From Gammaproteobacteria bacterium (GTDB lineage Bacteria > Pseudomonadota > Gammaproteobacteria > Steroidobacterales > Steroidobacteraceae): DNA of 49,018 nt. The notes under the pieces were generated by a model. It made no database searches. It had not been told where the DNA came from and worked only from the letters and a program-made list of their open reading frames with translations. Position numbers and translations under genes: made by a program. The stretch spans positions 1 through 49,018 of the forward strand of contig JASHTK010000109.1 in NCBI GenBank assembly GCA_030040575.1. The letters are read 5' to 3'. The first letter of the stretch is position 1; every line of letters begins with the position of its first letter. This document shows positions 11,436 through 49,018 of this stretch, one piece after another.

Positions 11436-11454
11436 AATTGTAATTGATAATAAT
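11436..11454. promoter_or_regulatory. AT-rich island (AATTGTAATTGATAATAAT) in a divergent intergenic region; candidate promoter/operator
   Basis: These 19 nt contain only two G and no C, within an otherwise very GC-rich region. The island sits between the divergently transcribed hydrolase (start 11379) and sensor gene (start 11557). It contains a TGATAATAAT extended -10-like string. No transcription start-site evidence is available. Confidence 0.25.
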
Positions 11455-11556
11455 CCCGCATCCGTGACGTGCAAGCCCCGGGCGGGGATCCTACCGCGTG
11501 CGGGACAACTCTGGCACACTGCATCCGGTCATCTTCGGGGGGCCGGCTGCAAGGCG

Positions 11557-12423
11557 ATGAAGCTCATCGTCCGACTCAATCTCGTGCTGATCCCGGTCCT
11601 CGCGGCCGCCGCGCTCGTCGCCGGCGAGATCGGCTCGCACTTGCTCGAGCTCGATGCCCGCAACGGGGCGCTGCGCGAGGCCGGCCTCATGATGGACGCC
11701 GCGCTCACCGCCCGCGGCTACACCACCGAGCAGATCGTCCCGCTGCTCAAGGAGGGCATGAAGCAGGCCTTCCTGCCGCAGAGCATCCCCTCGTACGCGG
11801 CGACCGAGCAGTTCCTCGGCCTGCGCGCCCGGCACCCGGAGTACGCGTACAAGGAAGCGACGCTCAACCCGACCAATCCGCGGGATCGGGCGACGGACTG
11901 GGAAGCGGACATCATCCAGCGGTTCCGCAACGATCCGGGAACGACCGAGATCGTGGGCGAGCGCGAGACGCCCCTCGGCAGCTCCCTGTATCGGGCCCGG
12001 CCGATCCGGGCAGACGCCCCGTGCCTCGAATGCCACAGCGTGCCCTCGGCCGCGCCGGCGACCATGCTCGCGCGCTACGGCACCGACAACGGGTTTGGCT
12101 GGCAGCCGCAGGAGATCGTGGGCGCCCAGATCGTCTCGGTGCCCCTTGCGAGCGCGACGGCGAGCGCACGCGAGGCGTTCCGGGGAGTGATGGAGCTGGT
12201 CGCAGGCGCCCTTCTCGCGGTCCTCATCGCCGTCAACATCATGGTGCACGGGCTGGTCGCGAGGCCGCTCGAGCGCATGGCCGCGGCGGCCGATGCGGTG
12301 AGCCTCGGCAACACCTCGACGCCCATCCCCTCGGGCGGCAGCGCCGAGATGCGGGCGCTCGCCCGCGCATTCGACCGGCTGCGCGTCAGCATGGAGAAGG
12401 CGCTGAAGCTCCTGGACAGTTAA
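11557..12423 (+). CDS. Membrane sensor: Tll0287-like (DUF3365) c-type haem domain + HAMP, no output domain
   Basis: Starts at ATG 11557. TM1 is MKLIVRLNLVLIPVLAAAALVAG. The periplasmic domain carries the haem-c motif CLECH (APCLECHSVPSAAP). TM2 is LVAGALLAVLIAVNIMV. The HAMP domain reads ARPLERMAAAADAVSLGN...EMRALARAFDRLRVSMEKAL. The ORF ends (TAA 12421-12423) a few codons after HAMP. Confidence 0.8.
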   Translation: MKLIVRLNLVLIPVLAAAALVAGEIGSHLLELDARNGALREAGLMMDAALTARGYTTEQIVPLLKEGMKQAFLPQSIPSYAATEQFLGLRARHPEYAYKEATLNPTNPRDRATDWEADIIQRFRNDPGTTEIVGERETPLGSSLYRARPIRADAPCLECHSVPSAAPATMLARYGTDNGFGWQPQEIVGAQIVSVPLASATASAREAFRGVMELVAGALLAVLIAVNIMVHGLVARPLERMAAAADAVSLGNTSTPIPSGGSAEMRALARAFDRLRVSMEKALKLLDS

Positions 12424-12427
12424 GACC

Positions 12428-13096
12428 GTGCCGCACCAGGTGTTCGTCAGCTACTCCCAGCCCGACCGGATCTGCGCGATCGAGCTCGTCGCGCGCCTCG
12501 AGGCGCACGGCTTCGGCGTGTGGGTCGCGCCCCGCGACGTGGTGCCGGCGTCGGATTGGGCTGCCTCGATCATCACCGCGATCGGCAACGCGCGCCTGAT
12601 GGTCCTCGTGTTCTCCGGGCACTGCAACGAGTCCCCGCACGTGCGTCGCGAGGTCGAGTGCGCGGTGCACCGGCAACTGCCGATCCTCCCGTTCCGCATC
12701 GAGGACGTGCCGCCCTCGAGCAGCCTCGAGTACTTCCTCGGCACGCAGCACTGGATGGACGCGTTCGCGCTGCCGCGCGAGTCGCACTATGAGCGGCTGT
12801 GCGCGCACGTCGGCGCGCTGCTCGGGCGGGTGGCGGCGCCCGCCGTGAATCCTCCCCCGCCTGTCGCGGCCCCCTCGGAACGCGCGCCGGACGAGCGGGC
12901 ACTGCAGCACCTGACCCGCGAGCTCGCCCGGCACGTGGGACCGGTGGCCCAGCACTTGGTCGGGCGCGCCGCGAAGTCCACCGGGAGCTGGGAGCAACTG
13001 TGCCGGCGGCTGGCCGAGGAGATCGGACCGGAGGCGGACCGGCAGCGATTCATCGACGCCTGCCGCCTGCCGCCGCGACCGGAAGGCCGAGAGTGA
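12428..13096 (+). CDS. TIR-domain protein with uncharacterised C-terminal extension
   Basis: GTG 12428 lies 4 nt after the upstream stop. TIR_2-type pattern: VFVSYSQPD, GFGVWVAPRD, ARLMVLVFSGHCNESPHVRREVECA (candidate catalytic Glu), LPILPFRIEDV and TQHWMDAF. A ~90-aa tail carries ELARHVGPVAQHLVGRAA. Confidence 0.85.
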   Translation: MPHQVFVSYSQPDRICAIELVARLEAHGFGVWVAPRDVVPASDWAASIITAIGNARLMVLVFSGHCNESPHVRREVECAVHRQLPILPFRIEDVPPSSSLEYFLGTQHWMDAFALPRESHYERLCAHVGALLGRVAAPAVNPPPPVAAPSERAPDERALQHLTRELARHVGPVAQHLVGRAAKSTGSWEQLCRRLAEEIGPEADRQRFIDACRLPPRPEGRE

Positions 13097-13260
13097 GGCG
13101 GTGCATGAGGGTCGCGTGAGGATGTACCGCTAGCCGCTTGCAAACGCTGAGAATTCCGCGGCTCGAGCGCCGGGGTCTCGCGAGCGGCTGGCGCGGGGTG
13201 GCCCGGCCGGCGGCCTTGCAGCGAGCGCCGGCCGAAATGGGCCGAATCGGCCGTATTTCG

Positions 13261-13291
13261 TTCCGATCTGCCGCCCAAATGTGGTTAGAAT
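13261..13291 (+). promoter_or_regulatory. Possible sigma70-type promoter for the phosphonate operon (TTCCGA - 19 nt - TAGAAT)
   Basis: TAGAAT at 13286-13291 is preceded by TGGT, and TTCCGA lies at 13261-13266. The spacer is long and the -35 match is poor. It sits about 45 nt upstream of ATG 13337. Confidence 0.2.
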
Positions 13292-43696: not shown

Positions 43697-44131
43697 TCAT
43701 CGCTCTGCGACACGCTCGAGATTCGGCAGCAGCCCGGCGAGCAGTCCGAGCGCCGGCAGGAAGGCGCACACCTCGTAGACGAACTCGACGCTGGTGCGGT
43801 CCGCGAGCTGGCCGAGCGCGGCCGCGCCGATGCCGCCCATGCCAAAGGCGAAGCCGAAGAACAGTCCGGAGATGGTCCCGGTCTTCCCGGGCAGCAGCTC
43901 CTGGGCGTAGACGATGATCGCCGGAAAGGCCGATGCAAGGATCAAGCCGATCGGCACGGTGAGCACGGCCGTCCACGGCAGGCTCACGTGCGGCAGCGCG
44001 AGCGTGAAGGGCAGGGTGCCGAGGATCGAGAGCCAGATGATGTACTTGCGGCCGAACCGATCGCCGAGCGGGCCGCCGACGATCGTCCCGAGCGCGACCG
44101 CTCCGAGGAAGACGAAGAGGTAGATCTGGGA
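43697..44131 (-). pseudogene. 3' fragment (about 144 codons) of an MFS transporter gene; the N-terminal half is missing
   Basis: My own in-frame translation upstream of the listed 96-aa ORF gives SQIYLFVFLGAVALGTIVGGPLGDRFGRKYIIWLSILGTLPFTLALP... This includes a loop 8-9 motif-A-like GxLxDRxGRK, and the frame closes at a stop at 44141-44143. No upstream half exists in the window. The boundary is uncertain within 44126-44140. Confidence 0.65.
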
Positions 44132-44633
44132 GGCCGTCGATCAGCGAGCGGTCGAGCACAGTGCTGGCAGAAGACTCCGTGGGGCGCAGTAGCGGCACGG
44201 TAGCGGTGACGGTTGAAGTATCGCCGCCGGCGCCGACCCGCAGCTTAAAATCCTGAATCGTCGTGTTCCCCACCAGAACCCGCACCAAAGCCACGACATC
44301 TCGAAAGCCCTCGTGGGTCACGGTAACGGAGTACGTTCCTGGCATCAGCGCCGAAAACTGATAAAAGCCAGCATGATTACTGGCGCTGTGTTGCTCCACT
44401 CCGGTAGCAAGATTGCGCAATGTGACCGGAGCACTGGGAATCACTGCTCCGCTGGGATCGGTCACGCGTCCGGAGATGGCGCCGGTCAAAACAACATTCT
44501 GCGCCGGTAACTCCGAGCAAGTTCCCAAGGCGAGCAAAATGCTGAACACCCACACCCAACGAGCACCAGGAATTCTGATGTTTGAAAAAATAGAAATCCT
44601 TGGTAGTAAAGGCAGAGATTGGGAGAGCATCAT
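44127..44633 (-). pseudogene. 5' fragment (about 169 codons) of a CarboxypepD_reg-type TonB-dependent receptor gene
   Basis: The fragment has a signal peptide (WVWVFSILLALGTCSELPAQ) and a carboxypeptidase-regulatory-like domain (GAISGRVTDPSGAVIPSAPVTLRNLATG...GFYQFSALMPGTYSVTV). The plug begins at STVLDRSLIDGLP, after which the reading frame becomes Arg-rich nonsense. Confidence 0.65.
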
Positions 44634-44966
44634 TGAACCCTCACACTGGATGCATCAGGCTTTATCGTCAAACAGACCCAAAAAGATAGTCGCGCGATGT
44701 TTATCAGTTATCACGGAAATGTGAACGCTTTATGAAAAGCCCGGGCCTTTGATCCCTTGTGATTGGGCTGACAAGAGACATTCTCCGTTCGCATGGGCTG
44801 TGGAAAACGATGAGTTGCTCAGCATGAAGAGTCTATCCACCTGCGCTTGTGAAGGATAGTGCCATCTGGCGTGGGAGGGTTAAGGATCGACGTGCCGGCC
44901 TCATATTTGTTGAGACAGGCACCTCCTGAACCATAGAGGAACAACGATTGCGGCGTGTTGCCCGCA

Positions 44967-45002
44967 AAAGACGAAAAAAGGAGGGGGACCTTTCGGTCCC
45001 CC
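44967..45002 (-). terminator. Rho-independent terminator of the downstream-facing TonB-receptor gene
   Basis: The minus strand reads GGGGGACC-GAAA-GGTCCCCC, a perfect 8-bp stem with a GNRA loop, followed by TCCTTTTTTCGTCTTTT. It lies 35 nt after the stop at 45037-45039. Confidence 0.8.
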
Positions 45003-45036
45003 GCTTGTTGCGAGTGAGATTTACAATGAGGCCCCT

Positions 45037-48000
45037 CTAGAAGCGAACCCGAGCTCCAACTTCGATCTGCCGTGGATTCGAGGCAAACTGGCCACCCTGA
45101 GCACCCCACTGGGCGGGATTGTAAAGGCCCGGATACCCGTCGCCCCACTCATCATGGTTGAGCAAGTTCGCGAACACGCCCTGGAATTCCAGACCAATGT
45201 TCTCTGCCACACGGACATTCTTCTTTATGCTGAAGTCCATGTTCCAGTAAGACAAGCCGGTGAGCGCTCCATAGCCTTCGTCCCTGAAGTCATCTACACC
45301 GAGAATCGGGTTACGCCAGTTGACGTAATCGTTGGCTCCGTTGCTGAACGCGTTGACGGGATACCCACCTCCGGCCGCTTGCCCAGGACAGGCAGCATAG
45401 TAATAACCGCCCGGCCCTACGGAGGCCGTCTTGCAGTAGTGGTTGGAGGTATGGAGGTCCTGCGGGCCGATCGGCACCGCATTCTCTGAATCGTAGTCCG
45501 CGCAACCAACTCCATCGCAGCCACCGTATGACTGGTAATCGGCAAACGTGGTAACGGTTTCGATTGGAATACCCGTTCCAGCCGTGAAGATGCTAGAGAA
45601 AGTCCATCCGCCGAGCACGCGTCCGATGAATCCGTTCTGCCCTTTGAAGAAGGGCGGCTCGTAGATAAAGAACGTGTTGAAGACGAGTCTGCGGTCAAAT
45701 GGCTGTACTCCGTACTGCTGGTTAAGGTTGAAGGGATCCAGTGTAGTAATCTCGCTGCCTGATTGCGCCTGCGATGCCATGCCCAGGGCCTTCGACCAGG
45801 TGAAGTTGGTCTGCATGGTCAGTCCTTTCCAGTCGGCCATCTTCAGGGACCAGAACAGCGCGTTATAGTTCGCATGCCCGATGCTGGCATTGTCGATCAC
45901 GCCTGACGTGTACTGACCAGAGGCGCCGTAGGGGCTGGAAAGAATCGGCGTGTTCTGCAGGCTGCGCGGGAAATTGAAGGCGCCTCCGTTTGTCGTCGTA
46001 CACCCGGCGGCTGGGCAGCCCACGCCTCTGTCCAAATCACTCCAGATGCCCCAAACTTGAGCATTCGTGAGGTTGCCGGTTCCGCTCGGACCCTCGTTGG
46101 CGATGACCGCCTGGGTGCAGTTCGTGTATCCGTTGCAATAGCCCGTTCCCGCCAGCGCGGTTTCGAAAAACGGTTGTGCACTGACAGCGCCCGGACTCGG
46201 CCCGACGCCCGGAGTGGGTAATGCTGAACCTCCGCAACCTCCGCCAGCGAGACCAGTGAGGCCGCCGCAGAGTTGCAACACCGTATTCGCATAAGCACTG
46301 GCGAAGTTCTGCCCGCCCTGCACCATCATGTAAGGAACCGCATTCAGCCAGACGGGCTGGTATTCGTGTTCAATTCTGCGTCCAATGTAGCCCACTTCCA
46401 AGGTCAGCCTGCGGCTGAGTTGTCGCTGAATGGTCAGATCGAACGAGTCAATCGAATTGGGCCGGAAATTCGGATCCAACCCTTCAGGCGAGGAGGATGC
46501 CGGGTTGTTGAAGCCGGGATAAACCGGCTGCGGCAAGGTCGGAGTTGCTAAATTGACCAAAGGTATGCTCGGACCACCCGCATTCGAAACGGTTGGCTCA
46601 ACCCGAAACACGTTGCTAAACGTGCCCTCTGAGCCGCAGCTCCAAGCACCGGCGGTAGAGATATTCGCGTTGCAACCGATCGGCTGCTCCAAGCCGAGAC
46701 CGAGCAGTGGTACGAGGACTTGCGCAACGCCGTTGGTACGGCCGTAGACGCGCCCGTAACCGCCACGAACCACCGTCGCGTCGTGGCCAAAGAGTCTGCC
46801 GCCGATTGAATCGGGATCAAACTTTGGGTTCCACGCGGCAGCTACGCGCGGGCTGAATTCCCCGTAGAACGGGTTGTAAGGATACTTGTTCCCCGAGGCG
46901 GCATTGCCAACCAGGGCAAAACCGAGTTCAGGATTGTAGACCTGCCCCTGCAACGCCGCCTTTTCGCGATTCGCGATGTAGGTTTTCTCCGCGACCGGTT
47001 CATCCGCGTCGTCCACAATCACGGTCTGCTTTCCATTTTGTTCCGTCGGCGGCATTTCCAGCGCATAGCCCAAGCCGTAGGTCAGTGTGAACGTCGGTTT
47101 CAGGTGCCAGGTATCGCTGAAATAGACGTTGTAATAAGGAATCGTGCTCTTGTCGAATGCGTTCGACAAGGGGGGATTCAAAGCTAGGCTCGCGCCGCTG
47201 CGAGTGAAGAGCTGGGATGCGACCGAGGTGGCGCCTAGCACGGCGGCCGCCACGGAGGCACAGTTGGCTATGCTGGTGGCTACGTTCTGGCTGTTCGTAG
47301 ACCCACAGGGTTGAAAACCTGTGGTAGAGATTAGCGCGTTAGTGTTGTTCCCGACGTCATAGACAGGATAAGCATTGATCCCGGCGCCGTTGTCGTCGCG
47401 CTGGTGGTAGTCGAAATTGTGCTGGTAGTATCCACCAAACTGGAACAGGTGGTTGCGATGCAGCATGGAAAGGTCGTCGCGAAGCATGCTGTCGTGCCCA
47501 TCCCAGAAACGGGATCGGATTTGCTGATTGTTCGAATTAAACGGGGTAAGATCCTGGGAATAACCACTACCTTGCCCGCTCATGATTTCGAGCGCACCAC
47601 CCAGTCCGCTGACCTGCGGTGGGGCTCCGGCGCGGTTCCACGCCCACCAGTTCCGCAGAAAACTGTAGTGGAAGTCGTTGGTGGTATTGTTGGTGATGTT
47701 CGTGGTCAGACCAGCAACCAGATACCAATCTTGAATCGGATCGCTGGCTGCCGAAGCTGGAGTCCCCTTTGTGTCGCCGGGGAAGAATCCGCCGATGTCG
47801 ACCTCACTATCGCTGGCCAGCTTCATGTTGTAATAGCGGTAGCTGACCATCAGATGTTGTTTGGTGGAGAAATCGTGATCAATACGGGCCACGCCGAAAT
47901 TGCTGCTGGTGGGCAGATCGAGGTTGGCTGAATAGCCTAAGATATTCGACCCGTCGCAGAGGCTCTGGCTGCAGCCCGCATTGGAAGCAGGTTCGTACTT

Positions 48001-49018
48001 GCTCCAGATCTGCGAAACGATGGGATTGAGTCCCAAGCCAAGGGGGTCACATACGGCACCGGTGCAGCCATAACCCACCGGGTACGTCGTTCCATTGTAG
48101 GTCACGGGAGCATTGGCCAGGTTGTAATCGATCTGGCCCGGAACTTTGGAATCGCTAAGCAACCCCAACTCCAATGCGGGTGAAGGAACGTTCCTGGTGA
48201 TGGTTTCCGCGCTCGGATACCGGAATCCTTCGTAGTTGGCAAAGAAGAATGTCTTTCCCCCAAGAAAATCTTTGGAACTAACCGGCCCACCGAACGCGCC
48301 GCCAAAGCGGCTGTAATGGTAAGAAGGAAGGTCGACGTGGTACCCGGGTATGTAATTCAGCCAGTTATTTTGCCAGGTATTGCCGGACCAGTTATTGTCT
48401 TTGTAGTATTCGTAGCCGGTGCCGTGAAAAGCGCTCGTGCCGCGCTTGGTAACGACCTTGATTTCTGCGCCAGCCGAGCTATTAAAGTCAGCAGTCTGAC
48501 CGGCCGTATTTACCTTGAATTCCTCAACGCTATCCTGCGGAGTCGGCATCACACCCGCCGGAACGCCCCAACCTTGGCCGTTTGCATTAGCTGCGCCGCC
48601 GGTTGGATCGCCAACAATGAGTGAAATTTGAGTTCCCAGATATACGCTGCCGTTGCCGTCCATATCGTTGGTGTTGTTGCCGCCGTCGAGCGTGAACGTG
48701 CTCTGATCGGTGACCGCGCCGGCAACGTCGCCGTCCGTACCCACGCCCGGCTGCAACTCGATGAACGTATTTACGTCGCGCCCGATGCTGGGCAGGTTAT
48801 TGATCGCCACTGCAGTAACTTCGTTCCCGACCGTCGCGTTCATGGTCTGCAGCTCGGTACCAGTAGCTTGGACTTCAACCACGACGTTCGTACCGCCGAC
48901 CTGCAGCGTGGGATTCACATTGAGCGCAACTCCCACCTTCACTTCCTGATCTGTGATCTTCGTAGTGGAGAAGCCCTGCTTGGCCACATCCATGTTGTAC
49001 GTTCCCGGATTCACGTCT
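45037..49018 (-). CDS. TonB-dependent receptor with N-terminal carboxypeptidase-regulatory-like domain (Acidobacteria-style, over 1300 aa); the 5' end lies outside the window
   Basis: The frame is open to the window edge. It begins within the CarboxypepD_reg-like domain (PGTYNMDVAKQGF) and continues into the plug (INNLPSIGRDVNTFIELQPGV). A long beta-barrel follows, ending ...EVGARVRF with a terminal Phe. Confidence 0.9.
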   Translation of the reverse strand, partial: DVNPGTYNMDVAKQGFSTTKITDQEVKVGVALNVNPTLQVGGTNVVVEVQATGTELQTMNATVGNEVTAVAINNLPSIGRDVNTFIELQPGVGTDGDVAGAVTDQSTFTLDGGNNTNDMDGNGSVYLGTQISLIVGDPTGGAANANGQGWGVPAGVMPTPQDSVEEFKVNTAGQTADFNSSAGAEIKVVTKRGTSAFHGTGYEYYKDNNWSGNTWQNNWLNYIPGYHVDLPSYHYSRFGGAFGGPVSSKDFLGGKTFFFANYEGFRYPSAETITRNVPSPALELGLLSDSKVPGQIDYNLANAPVTYNGTTYPVGYGCTGAVCDPLGLGLNPIVSQIWSKYEPASNAGCSQSLCDGSNILGYSANLDLPTSSNFGVARIDHDFSTKQHLMVSYRYYNMKLASDSEVDIGGFFPGDTKGTPASAASDPIQDWYLVAGLTTNITNNTTNDFHYSFLRNWWAWNRAGAPPQVSGLGGALEIMSGQGSGYSQDLTPFNSNNQQIRSRFWDGHDSMLRDDLSMLHRNHLFQFGGYYQHNFDYHQRDDNGAGINAYPVYDVGNNTNALISTTGFQPCGSTNSQNVATSIANCASVAAAVLGATSVASQLFTRSGASLALNPPLSNAFDKSTIPYYNVYFSDTWHLKPTFTLTYGLGYALEMPPTEQNGKQTVIVDDADEPVAEKTYIANREKAALQGQVYNPELGFALVGNAASGNKYPYNPFYGEFSPRVAAAWNPKFDPDSIGGRLFGHDATVVRGGYGRVYGRTNGVAQVLVPLLGLGLEQPIGCNANISTAGAWSCGSEGTFSNVFRVEPTVSNAGGPSIPLVNLATPTLPQPVYPGFNNPASSSPEGLDPNFRPNSIDSFDLTIQRQLSRRLTLEVGYIGRRIEHEYQPVWLNAVPYMMVQGGQNFASAYANTVLQLCGGLTGLAGGGCGGSALPTPGVGPSPGAVSAQPFFETALAGTGYCNGYTNCTQAVIANEGPSGTGNLTNAQVWGIWSDLDRGVGCPAAGCTTTNGGAFNFPRSLQNTPILSSPYGASGQYTSGVIDNASIGHANYNALFWSLKMADWKGLTMQTNFTWSKALGMASQAQSGSEITTLDPFNLNQQYGVQPFDRRLVFNTFFIYEPPFFKGQNGFIGRVLGGWTFSSIFTAGTGIPIETVTTFADYQSYGGCDGVGCADYDSENAVPIGPQDLHTSNHYCKTASVGPGGYYYAACPGQAAGGGYPVNAFSNGANDYVNWRNPILGVDDFRDEGYGALTGLSYWNMDFSIKKNVRVAENIGLEFQGVFANLLNHDEWGDGYPGLYNPAQWGAQGGQFASNPRQIEVGARVRF

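Follow-up and report, generated by a model that had tools for sequence, protein, structure and literature searches.

What does a membrane receptor signal to when its polypeptide stops at the HAMP domain? The question is raised by two adjacent genes on contig JASHTK010000109.1 of a Steroidobacteraceae bacterium (assembly GCA_030040575.1), which was analysed over a stretch of 49,018 nucleotides, called the window here. The first gene (11557-12423) encodes a sensor with a periplasmic haem domain and no output domain, and the second (12428-13096) encodes a protein with a TIR domain. An initial description of the locus, made from the letters alone (the sequence-only reading), proposed that the sensor has a detached output, namely the TIR protein. 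This proposal is now strongly supported, because the two genes are adjacent in 77 of 80 related loci and because the tail of the TIR protein, left there as ~90 amino acids without a name, is identified as a DUF8082 module (Pfam PF26309) carrying a HAMP-binding helix motif. The reading that we favour, with a probability of about 0.6, is that the two genes make up one signalling unit, in which the TIR protein docks on a sensor of haem ligands and serves as its output.

A precedent is provided by a Cache_haem-HAMP (CHH) receptor of Pseudomonas azotoformans, which binds nitric oxide (NO) and has an uncoupled HAMP domain (Deshpande, Xu, Dunleavy, Zhulin and Crane; bioRxiv 10.64898/2026.05.25.727664). 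A Ser/Thr kinase encoded adjacent to it binds the receptor with nanomolar affinity. In a 3.5-Å structure obtained by cryo-electron microscopy (cryo-EM), the kinase touches the two HAMP subunits with a pair of C-terminal helical bundles, one conserved IGPxAR helix per bundle (IGPLARFLVRKSLN or IGPIARIVVSRALR) making the contact; cryo-EM and biolayer interferometry together show that these helices bind HAMP and order it (bioRxiv 10.64898/2026.05.25.727664). The sequence-only reading did not recognise the arrangement in the window as one already described. This still holds for the TIR partner, but an uncoupled HAMP with a docked partner has now been described for a kinase, so that the new element here would be a TIR protein in the docked position. 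TIR partners are not mentioned in the CHH preprint (bioRxiv 10.64898/2026.05.25.727664), TIR is absent from the fusion partners listed in the companion paper on Cache_haem (bioRxiv 10.64898/2026.02.01.703092), and our literature search found nothing that names DUF8082, nor Tll0287 together with TIR.

The link to the kinase system lies in the tail of the TIR protein. This helical segment of ~60 residues carries a precomputed DUF8082 annotation on the window's own protein. It has one copy of the motif LA-H-(I/V)GP-A--LV and includes LARHVGPVAQHLVGRAAK, the family consensus being LA-H-IGPLAQHLV-RAA. When the 62-residue tail was used alone as a query, 963 representative proteins were matched at E<=1e-3, mostly dyad repeats on kinases. 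Among the best 150 of these 963 matches, the heads recognised by Pfam were Pkinase (59), Guanylate_cyc (12), TIR_2 (7), CHAT (1) and caspase (1), and the docking motif was present twice in 108. The tail is 44% identical to both repeats of one Ser/Thr kinase (P0258), which is itself annotated with DUF8082 and is encoded directly after a 290-residue Tll0287+HAMP receptor; over its full length the window's sensor is 42% identical to that receptor (E 1e-73). A cyclase-DUF8082 protein and a two-module TIR-DUF8082 protein are also each encoded directly after a Tll0287+HAMP receptor, as was the case in every DUF8082 context sampled (kinase, cyclase and two-module TIR; loci L090-L093). In L090 a caspase/peptidoglycan-binding gene lies directly upstream of the receptor. 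The number of modules varies with the head: exactly one is found in all 81 members of the window's TIR family, and two in kinases, cyclases and some other TIR proteins. Among proteins P0244-P0393, a few, such as P0244 and P0245, have three or four.

Since the tail is homologous to the kinase repeats, and kinase, cyclase and TIR partners share the same receptor context, the window's pair is, by homology, a member of the CHH receptor/docked-output family in which a TIR head replaces the kinase. DUF8082 itself behaves as a putative portable docking module with swappable heads. The predicted docking of the TIR tail on the HAMP domain of the sensor is well supported by these comparisons, and the window's own two proteins probably bind each other in this way.

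The pairing of the two genes is strict. One genome per species was scanned; a relative of the TIR protein turned up in 208 genomes, and 80 loci were then retrieved. In the 77 already mentioned, the sensor gene is directly upstream of the TIR gene on the same strand; of the three exceptions, two have partial sensor matches only (L031 and L075) and one is cut by the end of its contig (L053). In most cases -4 to +17 nt separate the two genes. For the sensor and the TIR protein alike, homologues of equal length number in the hundreds, at 55-63% identity, and clustering of all open reading frames (ORFs) of the fetched loci revealed no other universally conserved neighbour. The sensor fragments of L031 (5578-5742) and L075 (5514-5840) lie upstream of an intact TIR gene and could represent sensor decay or an assembly frameshift.

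The sensor is organised as a first transmembrane (TM) helix, a periplasmic Cache_haem/Tll0287-like domain, a second TM helix and a HAMP domain, followed by the stop codon (Table 1). Its hydrophobic segments, at about residues 3-27 and 207-238, stand on either side of the periplasmic domain, and the protein ends only 9 residues past HAMP, with TAA at 12421-12423. The two TM helices, the CLECH motif, the complete HAMP domain and this stop codon are thus all where the sequence-only reading had placed them. A search of PDB sequences with the sensor aligned 5b82 (Tll0287) across the CxxCH region and also matched the HAMP domain of AF1503; the receptor-kinase complex was sought in the same search, which returned only these two. 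CxxCH is kept in all 80 related sensors. The possibility that the sensor is a truncated histidine kinase, raised at the outset as an outcome that would undo the detached-output proposal, was rejected because the best 120 homologues are, with few exceptions, 288-292 residues long, and their alignments nearly always cover 99-100% of the sensor.

The TIR ORF begins at GTG 12428, 4 nt past the sensor, and has the TIR_2 pattern, in agreement with its first description. A single-chain AlphaFold (AF2) model of the protein has a predicted local distance difference test score (pLDDT) of 74, and Foldseek matched it to SARM1, TLR1, RPS4, PdTIR and AbTir, all with probability 1.0. Glu75, the Glu in HVRREVECA that had been singled out as standing at the catalytic position of NADases, falls on the Glu of 'KEL' in PdTIR when the two are aligned, in the helix expected after strand C. 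It is invariant in 22 aligned relatives, and an RREVE-type motif is present in all 81 TIRs. Characterised bacterial TIR proteins mostly process nicotinamide adenine dinucleotide (NAD+), and TIR NADases, including SARM1 and those of plants and bacteria, generally need self-association for activity. We infer that the TIR protein is an NAD+-processing enzyme acting through Glu75.

How might the pair work? The receptor would be a dimer in the inner membrane, with a c-type haem domain in the periplasm and a cytoplasmic HAMP domain to which no output is fused. The soluble TIR enzyme would dock its DUF8082 bundle on HAMP through the helix LARHVGPVAQHLV, with the Pro/Ala linker as a tether; this linker (residues 133-154) parallels the ~30-residue linker of the kinase. 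The kinase has two modules, which grip both HAMP subunits, and the TIR protein has one; a 2:2 stoichiometry, with one TIR protein per HAMP subunit and two per receptor dimer, is therefore probable. A periplasmic haem ligand, which by analogy with the P. azotoformans receptor may be NO, or a redox change would alter the conformation of HAMP. Because TIR NADases generally need self-association, control of TIR-TIR geometry by HAMP is a plausible switch: the change in HAMP would determine how close the two TIR domains lie or how they are arranged, and cleavage of NAD+ through Glu75 would be switched in this manner. As to the NAD+ or signal chemistry, the outcome would be either an ADP-ribose-derived messenger or simply lowered NAD+. 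The receiver of such a messenger would be a SLOG-like/SLATT-like membrane protein, whose gene comes next after the TIR gene in about a quarter of relatives.

In 19 of the 80 loci this third gene, of ~560 codons, is the next one downstream of the TIR gene, and the two overlap in at least one. The same three-gene arrangement occurs in further independent contexts (L086/L087), and distant copies of the third gene are found nearby on the opposite strand in L069 and L078. Its presence is phylogenetically clustered on the TIR tree. In an AlphaFold model of the protein (pLDDT 78), long transmembrane helices come after an alpha/beta domain at the N-terminus. The best Foldseek matches of the N-terminal domain are DprA, ShosA and LOG, of the SLOG superfamily (E 4e-3 to 0.4). 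Matches of the protein to the Pfam/NCBIfam models YAcAr (SLOG), SLATT_3 and DUF4231 are consistent, all of them below the cut-offs, and a precomputed DUF4231 match exists in some relatives. A profile of the third gene found no match among PDB sequences. A TIR protein with the SLATT effector ThsH, the signal being cyclic ADP-ribose (cADPR), constitutes the type VII layout of Thoeris (bioRxiv 10.64898/2025.12.03.692087). Together with that layout, the SLOG-like character of the third gene suggests that, in the relatives that have it, the TIR enzyme makes a nucleotide read by the SLOG domain. A homologue of the third gene also stands alone in L088 (5001-6683), between mipA and a phosphoketolase gene and with no sensor-TIR pair nearby. 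The third gene can thus occur apart from the pair, and a receiver could be encoded elsewhere in a genome.

A wider picture can be drawn, tentatively. In it, the haem (NO/redox) receptor would hold two TIR enzymes on its HAMP and gate the formation of an ADP-ribose-derived nucleotide, and a membrane channel with a SLOG domain would read that nucleotide, the whole being a TIR second-messenger pathway that is vertically inherited and has no part in immunity. In a broader sense, output-less HAMP receptors would share DUF8082 as a universal plug, by which kinase, cyclase, TIR and CHAT/caspase outputs can be exchanged. We regard this extended version as possible, but on balance doubtful.

Several observations weigh against the docked-output reading itself or against parts of it. 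The Glu at the catalytic position is retained also by the non-enzymatic TIR domains of TLRs, and catalysis is therefore not readable from the sequence. The sensor is only 42% identical to the kinase-paired receptor, which makes NO an analogy. A receiver gene is not adjacent to the pair in the window, in its nearest relative (L005) or in any of the 26 loci of the Rhodanobacteraceae clade (two of which carry other labels), and tblastn found no third gene anywhere in the window; a messenger role would therefore need an unlinked receiver.

The last of these points also suits an unlikely alternative in which the docked TIR is a plain NAD+-depleting brake, making no messenger and slowing metabolism when nitrosative or redox stress is sensed in the periplasm. 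Depletion is indeed the mode of action of SARM1-type TIRs and of several bacterial ones, and the two-gene form lacking a receiver is in the majority, accounting for at least 58 of the 80 loci. However, the SLOG-type gene has become linked to the pair repeatedly and independently, in varied orientations (directly downstream in 19 loci, on the other strand in L069 and L078), which argues for the readout of a diffusible product, and the unlinked copy in L088 means that the receiver may be encoded elsewhere.

The lack of a linked receiver gene in most genomes would also suit a TIR domain that is not an enzyme at all. In this case the TIR protein would be an adaptor on the receptor that recruits or sequesters a TIR- or NAD-binding partner, or it would merely modulate the receptor. 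The closest matches among PDB sequences are indeed non-catalytic TIRs of the TLR type. Nevertheless, no variation is seen at Glu75 or in the RREVE around it across 81 sequences, the other heads that this docking module carries (kinase, cyclase, CHAT and caspase) are all enzymes, and bacterial TIRs that have been characterised are mostly NAD+-processing. An adaptor role is a little less probable still than a brake.

Is the pair part of phage defence? The sequence-only reading had offered a stress- or phage-triggered abortive module as its alternative. In a Thoeris-like version, the sensor would detect envelope or redox damage caused by phage, the TIR enzyme would make an alarm nucleotide or deplete NAD+ to kill or arrest the cell, and the SLOG/SLATT protein would be a pore effector where present. 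The operons of 19 of the 80 relatives, with their SLOG-like/SLATT-like gene, recall the published combination of TIR and SLATT effector in type VII, and the TIR protein is weakly similar to models of ThsB, of TIRs associated with prokaryotic Argonautes (pAgo) and of SAVED-TIR proteins. But neither a ThsB nor a PADLOC model is reached at cut-off (ThsB_TIR 14.9 vs 21.2 bits; ThcB4 22 vs 220 bits), the PADLOC ThsB match being only partial (7e-4), and the window holds no adjacent effector with a signal-binding domain of the kind that marks Thoeris. Nor was the patchy, mobile distribution of a defence island seen in the tree, the flanks or the plasmid search. The TIR tree follows taxonomy, with Rhodanobacteraceae (Dyella, Rhodanobacter and Pinirhizobacter) as a clade of 100/100 support and several clades of Steroidobacteraceae; the window and the metagenomic relative L005 form a long branch of their own. 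The flanks, which differ by clade, contain amino-acid permeases, LysR regulators, a POT transporter, cation efflux genes and hydrolases, and no defence or mobile genes were found in the flanks of the examined loci. A search of 72,556 plasmids gave no match, and phage records gave a single one, to the TIR only. Terms for this receptor type (Tll0287, DUF3365, HAMP) are absent from the accessible parts of a systematic survey of TIR defence, namely its main text (HAMP, heme) and supplements, and the outputs of the sister receptors, kinases and cyclases, are those of ordinary signalling. The strict pairing, the taxonomy-following tree, the ordinary flanks and the absence of plasmid copies fit a vertically inherited chromosomal signalling module rather than a mobile defence island, and an abortive defence role is the least probable of the alternatives. 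One contig in the Rhodanobacteraceae clade of the tree, L017 (CAJCJD010000246.1), is labelled Candidatus Eremiobacteraeota; it nests there with a very short branch (0.075) and is probably mis-binned.

Table 1. Features of the sensor-TIR pair and its 3' flank (positions in the window)
Feature	Position	Strand	Basis
Sensor gene, CHH-type receptor, 288 amino acids, no output domain	11557..12423	+	translation, Pfam, same-length homologues
TM helix 1 / signal anchor, about residues 4-27	11566..11637	+	hydropathy windows >1.8
Periplasmic Tll0287-like (DUF3365 / Cache_haem) domain	11656..12144	+	Pfam PF11845, E 4e-34, residues 34-196
CLECH haem-c attachment motif, residues 156-160	12022..12036	+	motif read in sensor
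TM helix 2, about residues 208-230	12178..12246	+	hydropathy
Cytoplasmic HAMP domain, residues 231-279	12247..12393	+	Pfam PF00672, E 1.8e-10
4-nt spacer, sensor TAA to TIR GTG	12424..12427	+	sequence
TIR-DUF8082 gene, 222 amino acids, start GTG 12428	12428..13096	+	translation, Pfam, precomputed PF26309
TIR_2 domain, residues 5-124	12440..12799	+	Pfam E 7e-21
Codon of Glu75, candidate catalytic Glu in RREVE	12650..12652	+	alignment to PdTIR KEL Glu
Pro/Ala-rich flexible linker, residues 133-154	12824..12889	+	pLDDT <50 at residues 135-146; length varies in alignment
DUF8082 helical module, residues 155-213, putative HAMP-docking domain, single copy	12890..13066	+	tail search, kinase-repeat homology
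Recognition-helix motif LARHVGPVAQHLV	12923..12961	+	matches IGPLARFLVRKSLN / IGPIARIVVSRALR, HAMP-contacting helices of the cryo-EM structure
Terminator-like hairpin with T-rich tail	13240..13262	+	in 240-nt gap before next operon

In the window, the pair is bordered upstream by a divergent dienelactone hydrolase gene and downstream, beyond the 240-nt gap, by a phosphonate operon. An AT-rich patch at 11437-11456 (GAATTGTAATTGATAATAAT; 17 of 20 nt A/T) lies ~120 nt upstream of the sensor start in an intergenic region that is otherwise 70% GC. It has the likeness of half a Fur box, a reading that was rejected because nothing of the kind recurs upstream of 70-odd related sensors. What the Rhodanobacteraceae have in common upstream of the sensor is another element, CTTTGTGTCATGATTTCC, at about -118. 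The window belongs to a lineage from peat metagenomes: the stretch was found in DNA runs of peat metagenomes only, and no RNA runs contained it. Exact look-ups of the window's own protein in a contig index returned no record. Elsewhere in the window, the GC content falls from ~0.73 to ~0.56 near 44.1 kb (44001-49018), where the low-GC end is filled by a minus-strand ORF of 1325 amino acids, and it is also lower (0.61-0.66) in the region 1-9 kb.

To our knowledge, almost all that has been learned about TIR domains in bacteria concerns phage defence and effectors that target hosts. Here a TIR enzyme appears to be wired instead to an environmental gas or redox haem sensor, through a docking module that is structurally backed in the kinase system. 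The pair is conserved and vertically inherited in the culturable soil genera Dyella, Rhodanobacter and Pinirhizobacter, and since the family occurs in cultured Dyella and Rhodanobacter, experiments are feasible: housekeeping TIR/NAD+ signalling in bacteria would become directly testable. The pair would also extend the CHH-kinase mechanism to a modular design, one receptor with many docked outputs, and offer a natural system for the study of how receptor geometry switches TIR activity.

The docked-output reading can be set beside four known systems. With type VII Thoeris (ThsB TIR plus ThsH; bioRxiv 10.64898/2025.12.03.692087) the family shares, in about a quarter of relatives, a TIR gene followed by one for a SLATT-like membrane protein that may respond to a nucleotide made by the TIR. 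It differs in that the window has no such effector gene, a haem sensor comes before the TIR, which has a tail for docking on a receptor, an additional N-terminal SLOG-like domain is present in the third gene of the relatives, and the genes are vertically inherited outside defence islands, with no ThsB model over threshold. With SARM1 and other TIR NADases that are activated by self-association, the TIR protein shares the fold, the Glu at the catalytic position and an activity that is expected to depend on bringing TIR domains together; the assembly here would be achieved by a bacterial transmembrane receptor dimer, not by ARM/SAM domains or phage sensing. Fused DUF3365/Cache_haem sensors, including histidine kinases, methyl-accepting chemotaxis proteins, GGDEF proteins and cyclases (bioRxiv 10.64898/2026.02.01.703092), have the same input domain and HAMP relay, whereas the output here would be a TIR domain on a separate polypeptide held non-covalently. 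Finally, the CHH-kinase system of P. azotoformans has a PknB-like kinase head in place of the TIR, a dyad of docking modules instead of one, a PP2C phosphatase that the window's pair lacks, and phosphorylation as its output where NAD+ cleavage is expected here. In spite of these differences, the receptors are built alike, with a c-haem Cache domain, two TM helices and an uncoupled HAMP domain in ~290 residues and with the partner gene immediately downstream, and so are the partners, each having an enzymatic head, a flexible linker of ~30 residues and a DUF8082 module whose (I/V)GPxA..LV helix contacts AS-1 of HAMP in the kinase complex and would do so in the TIR pair.

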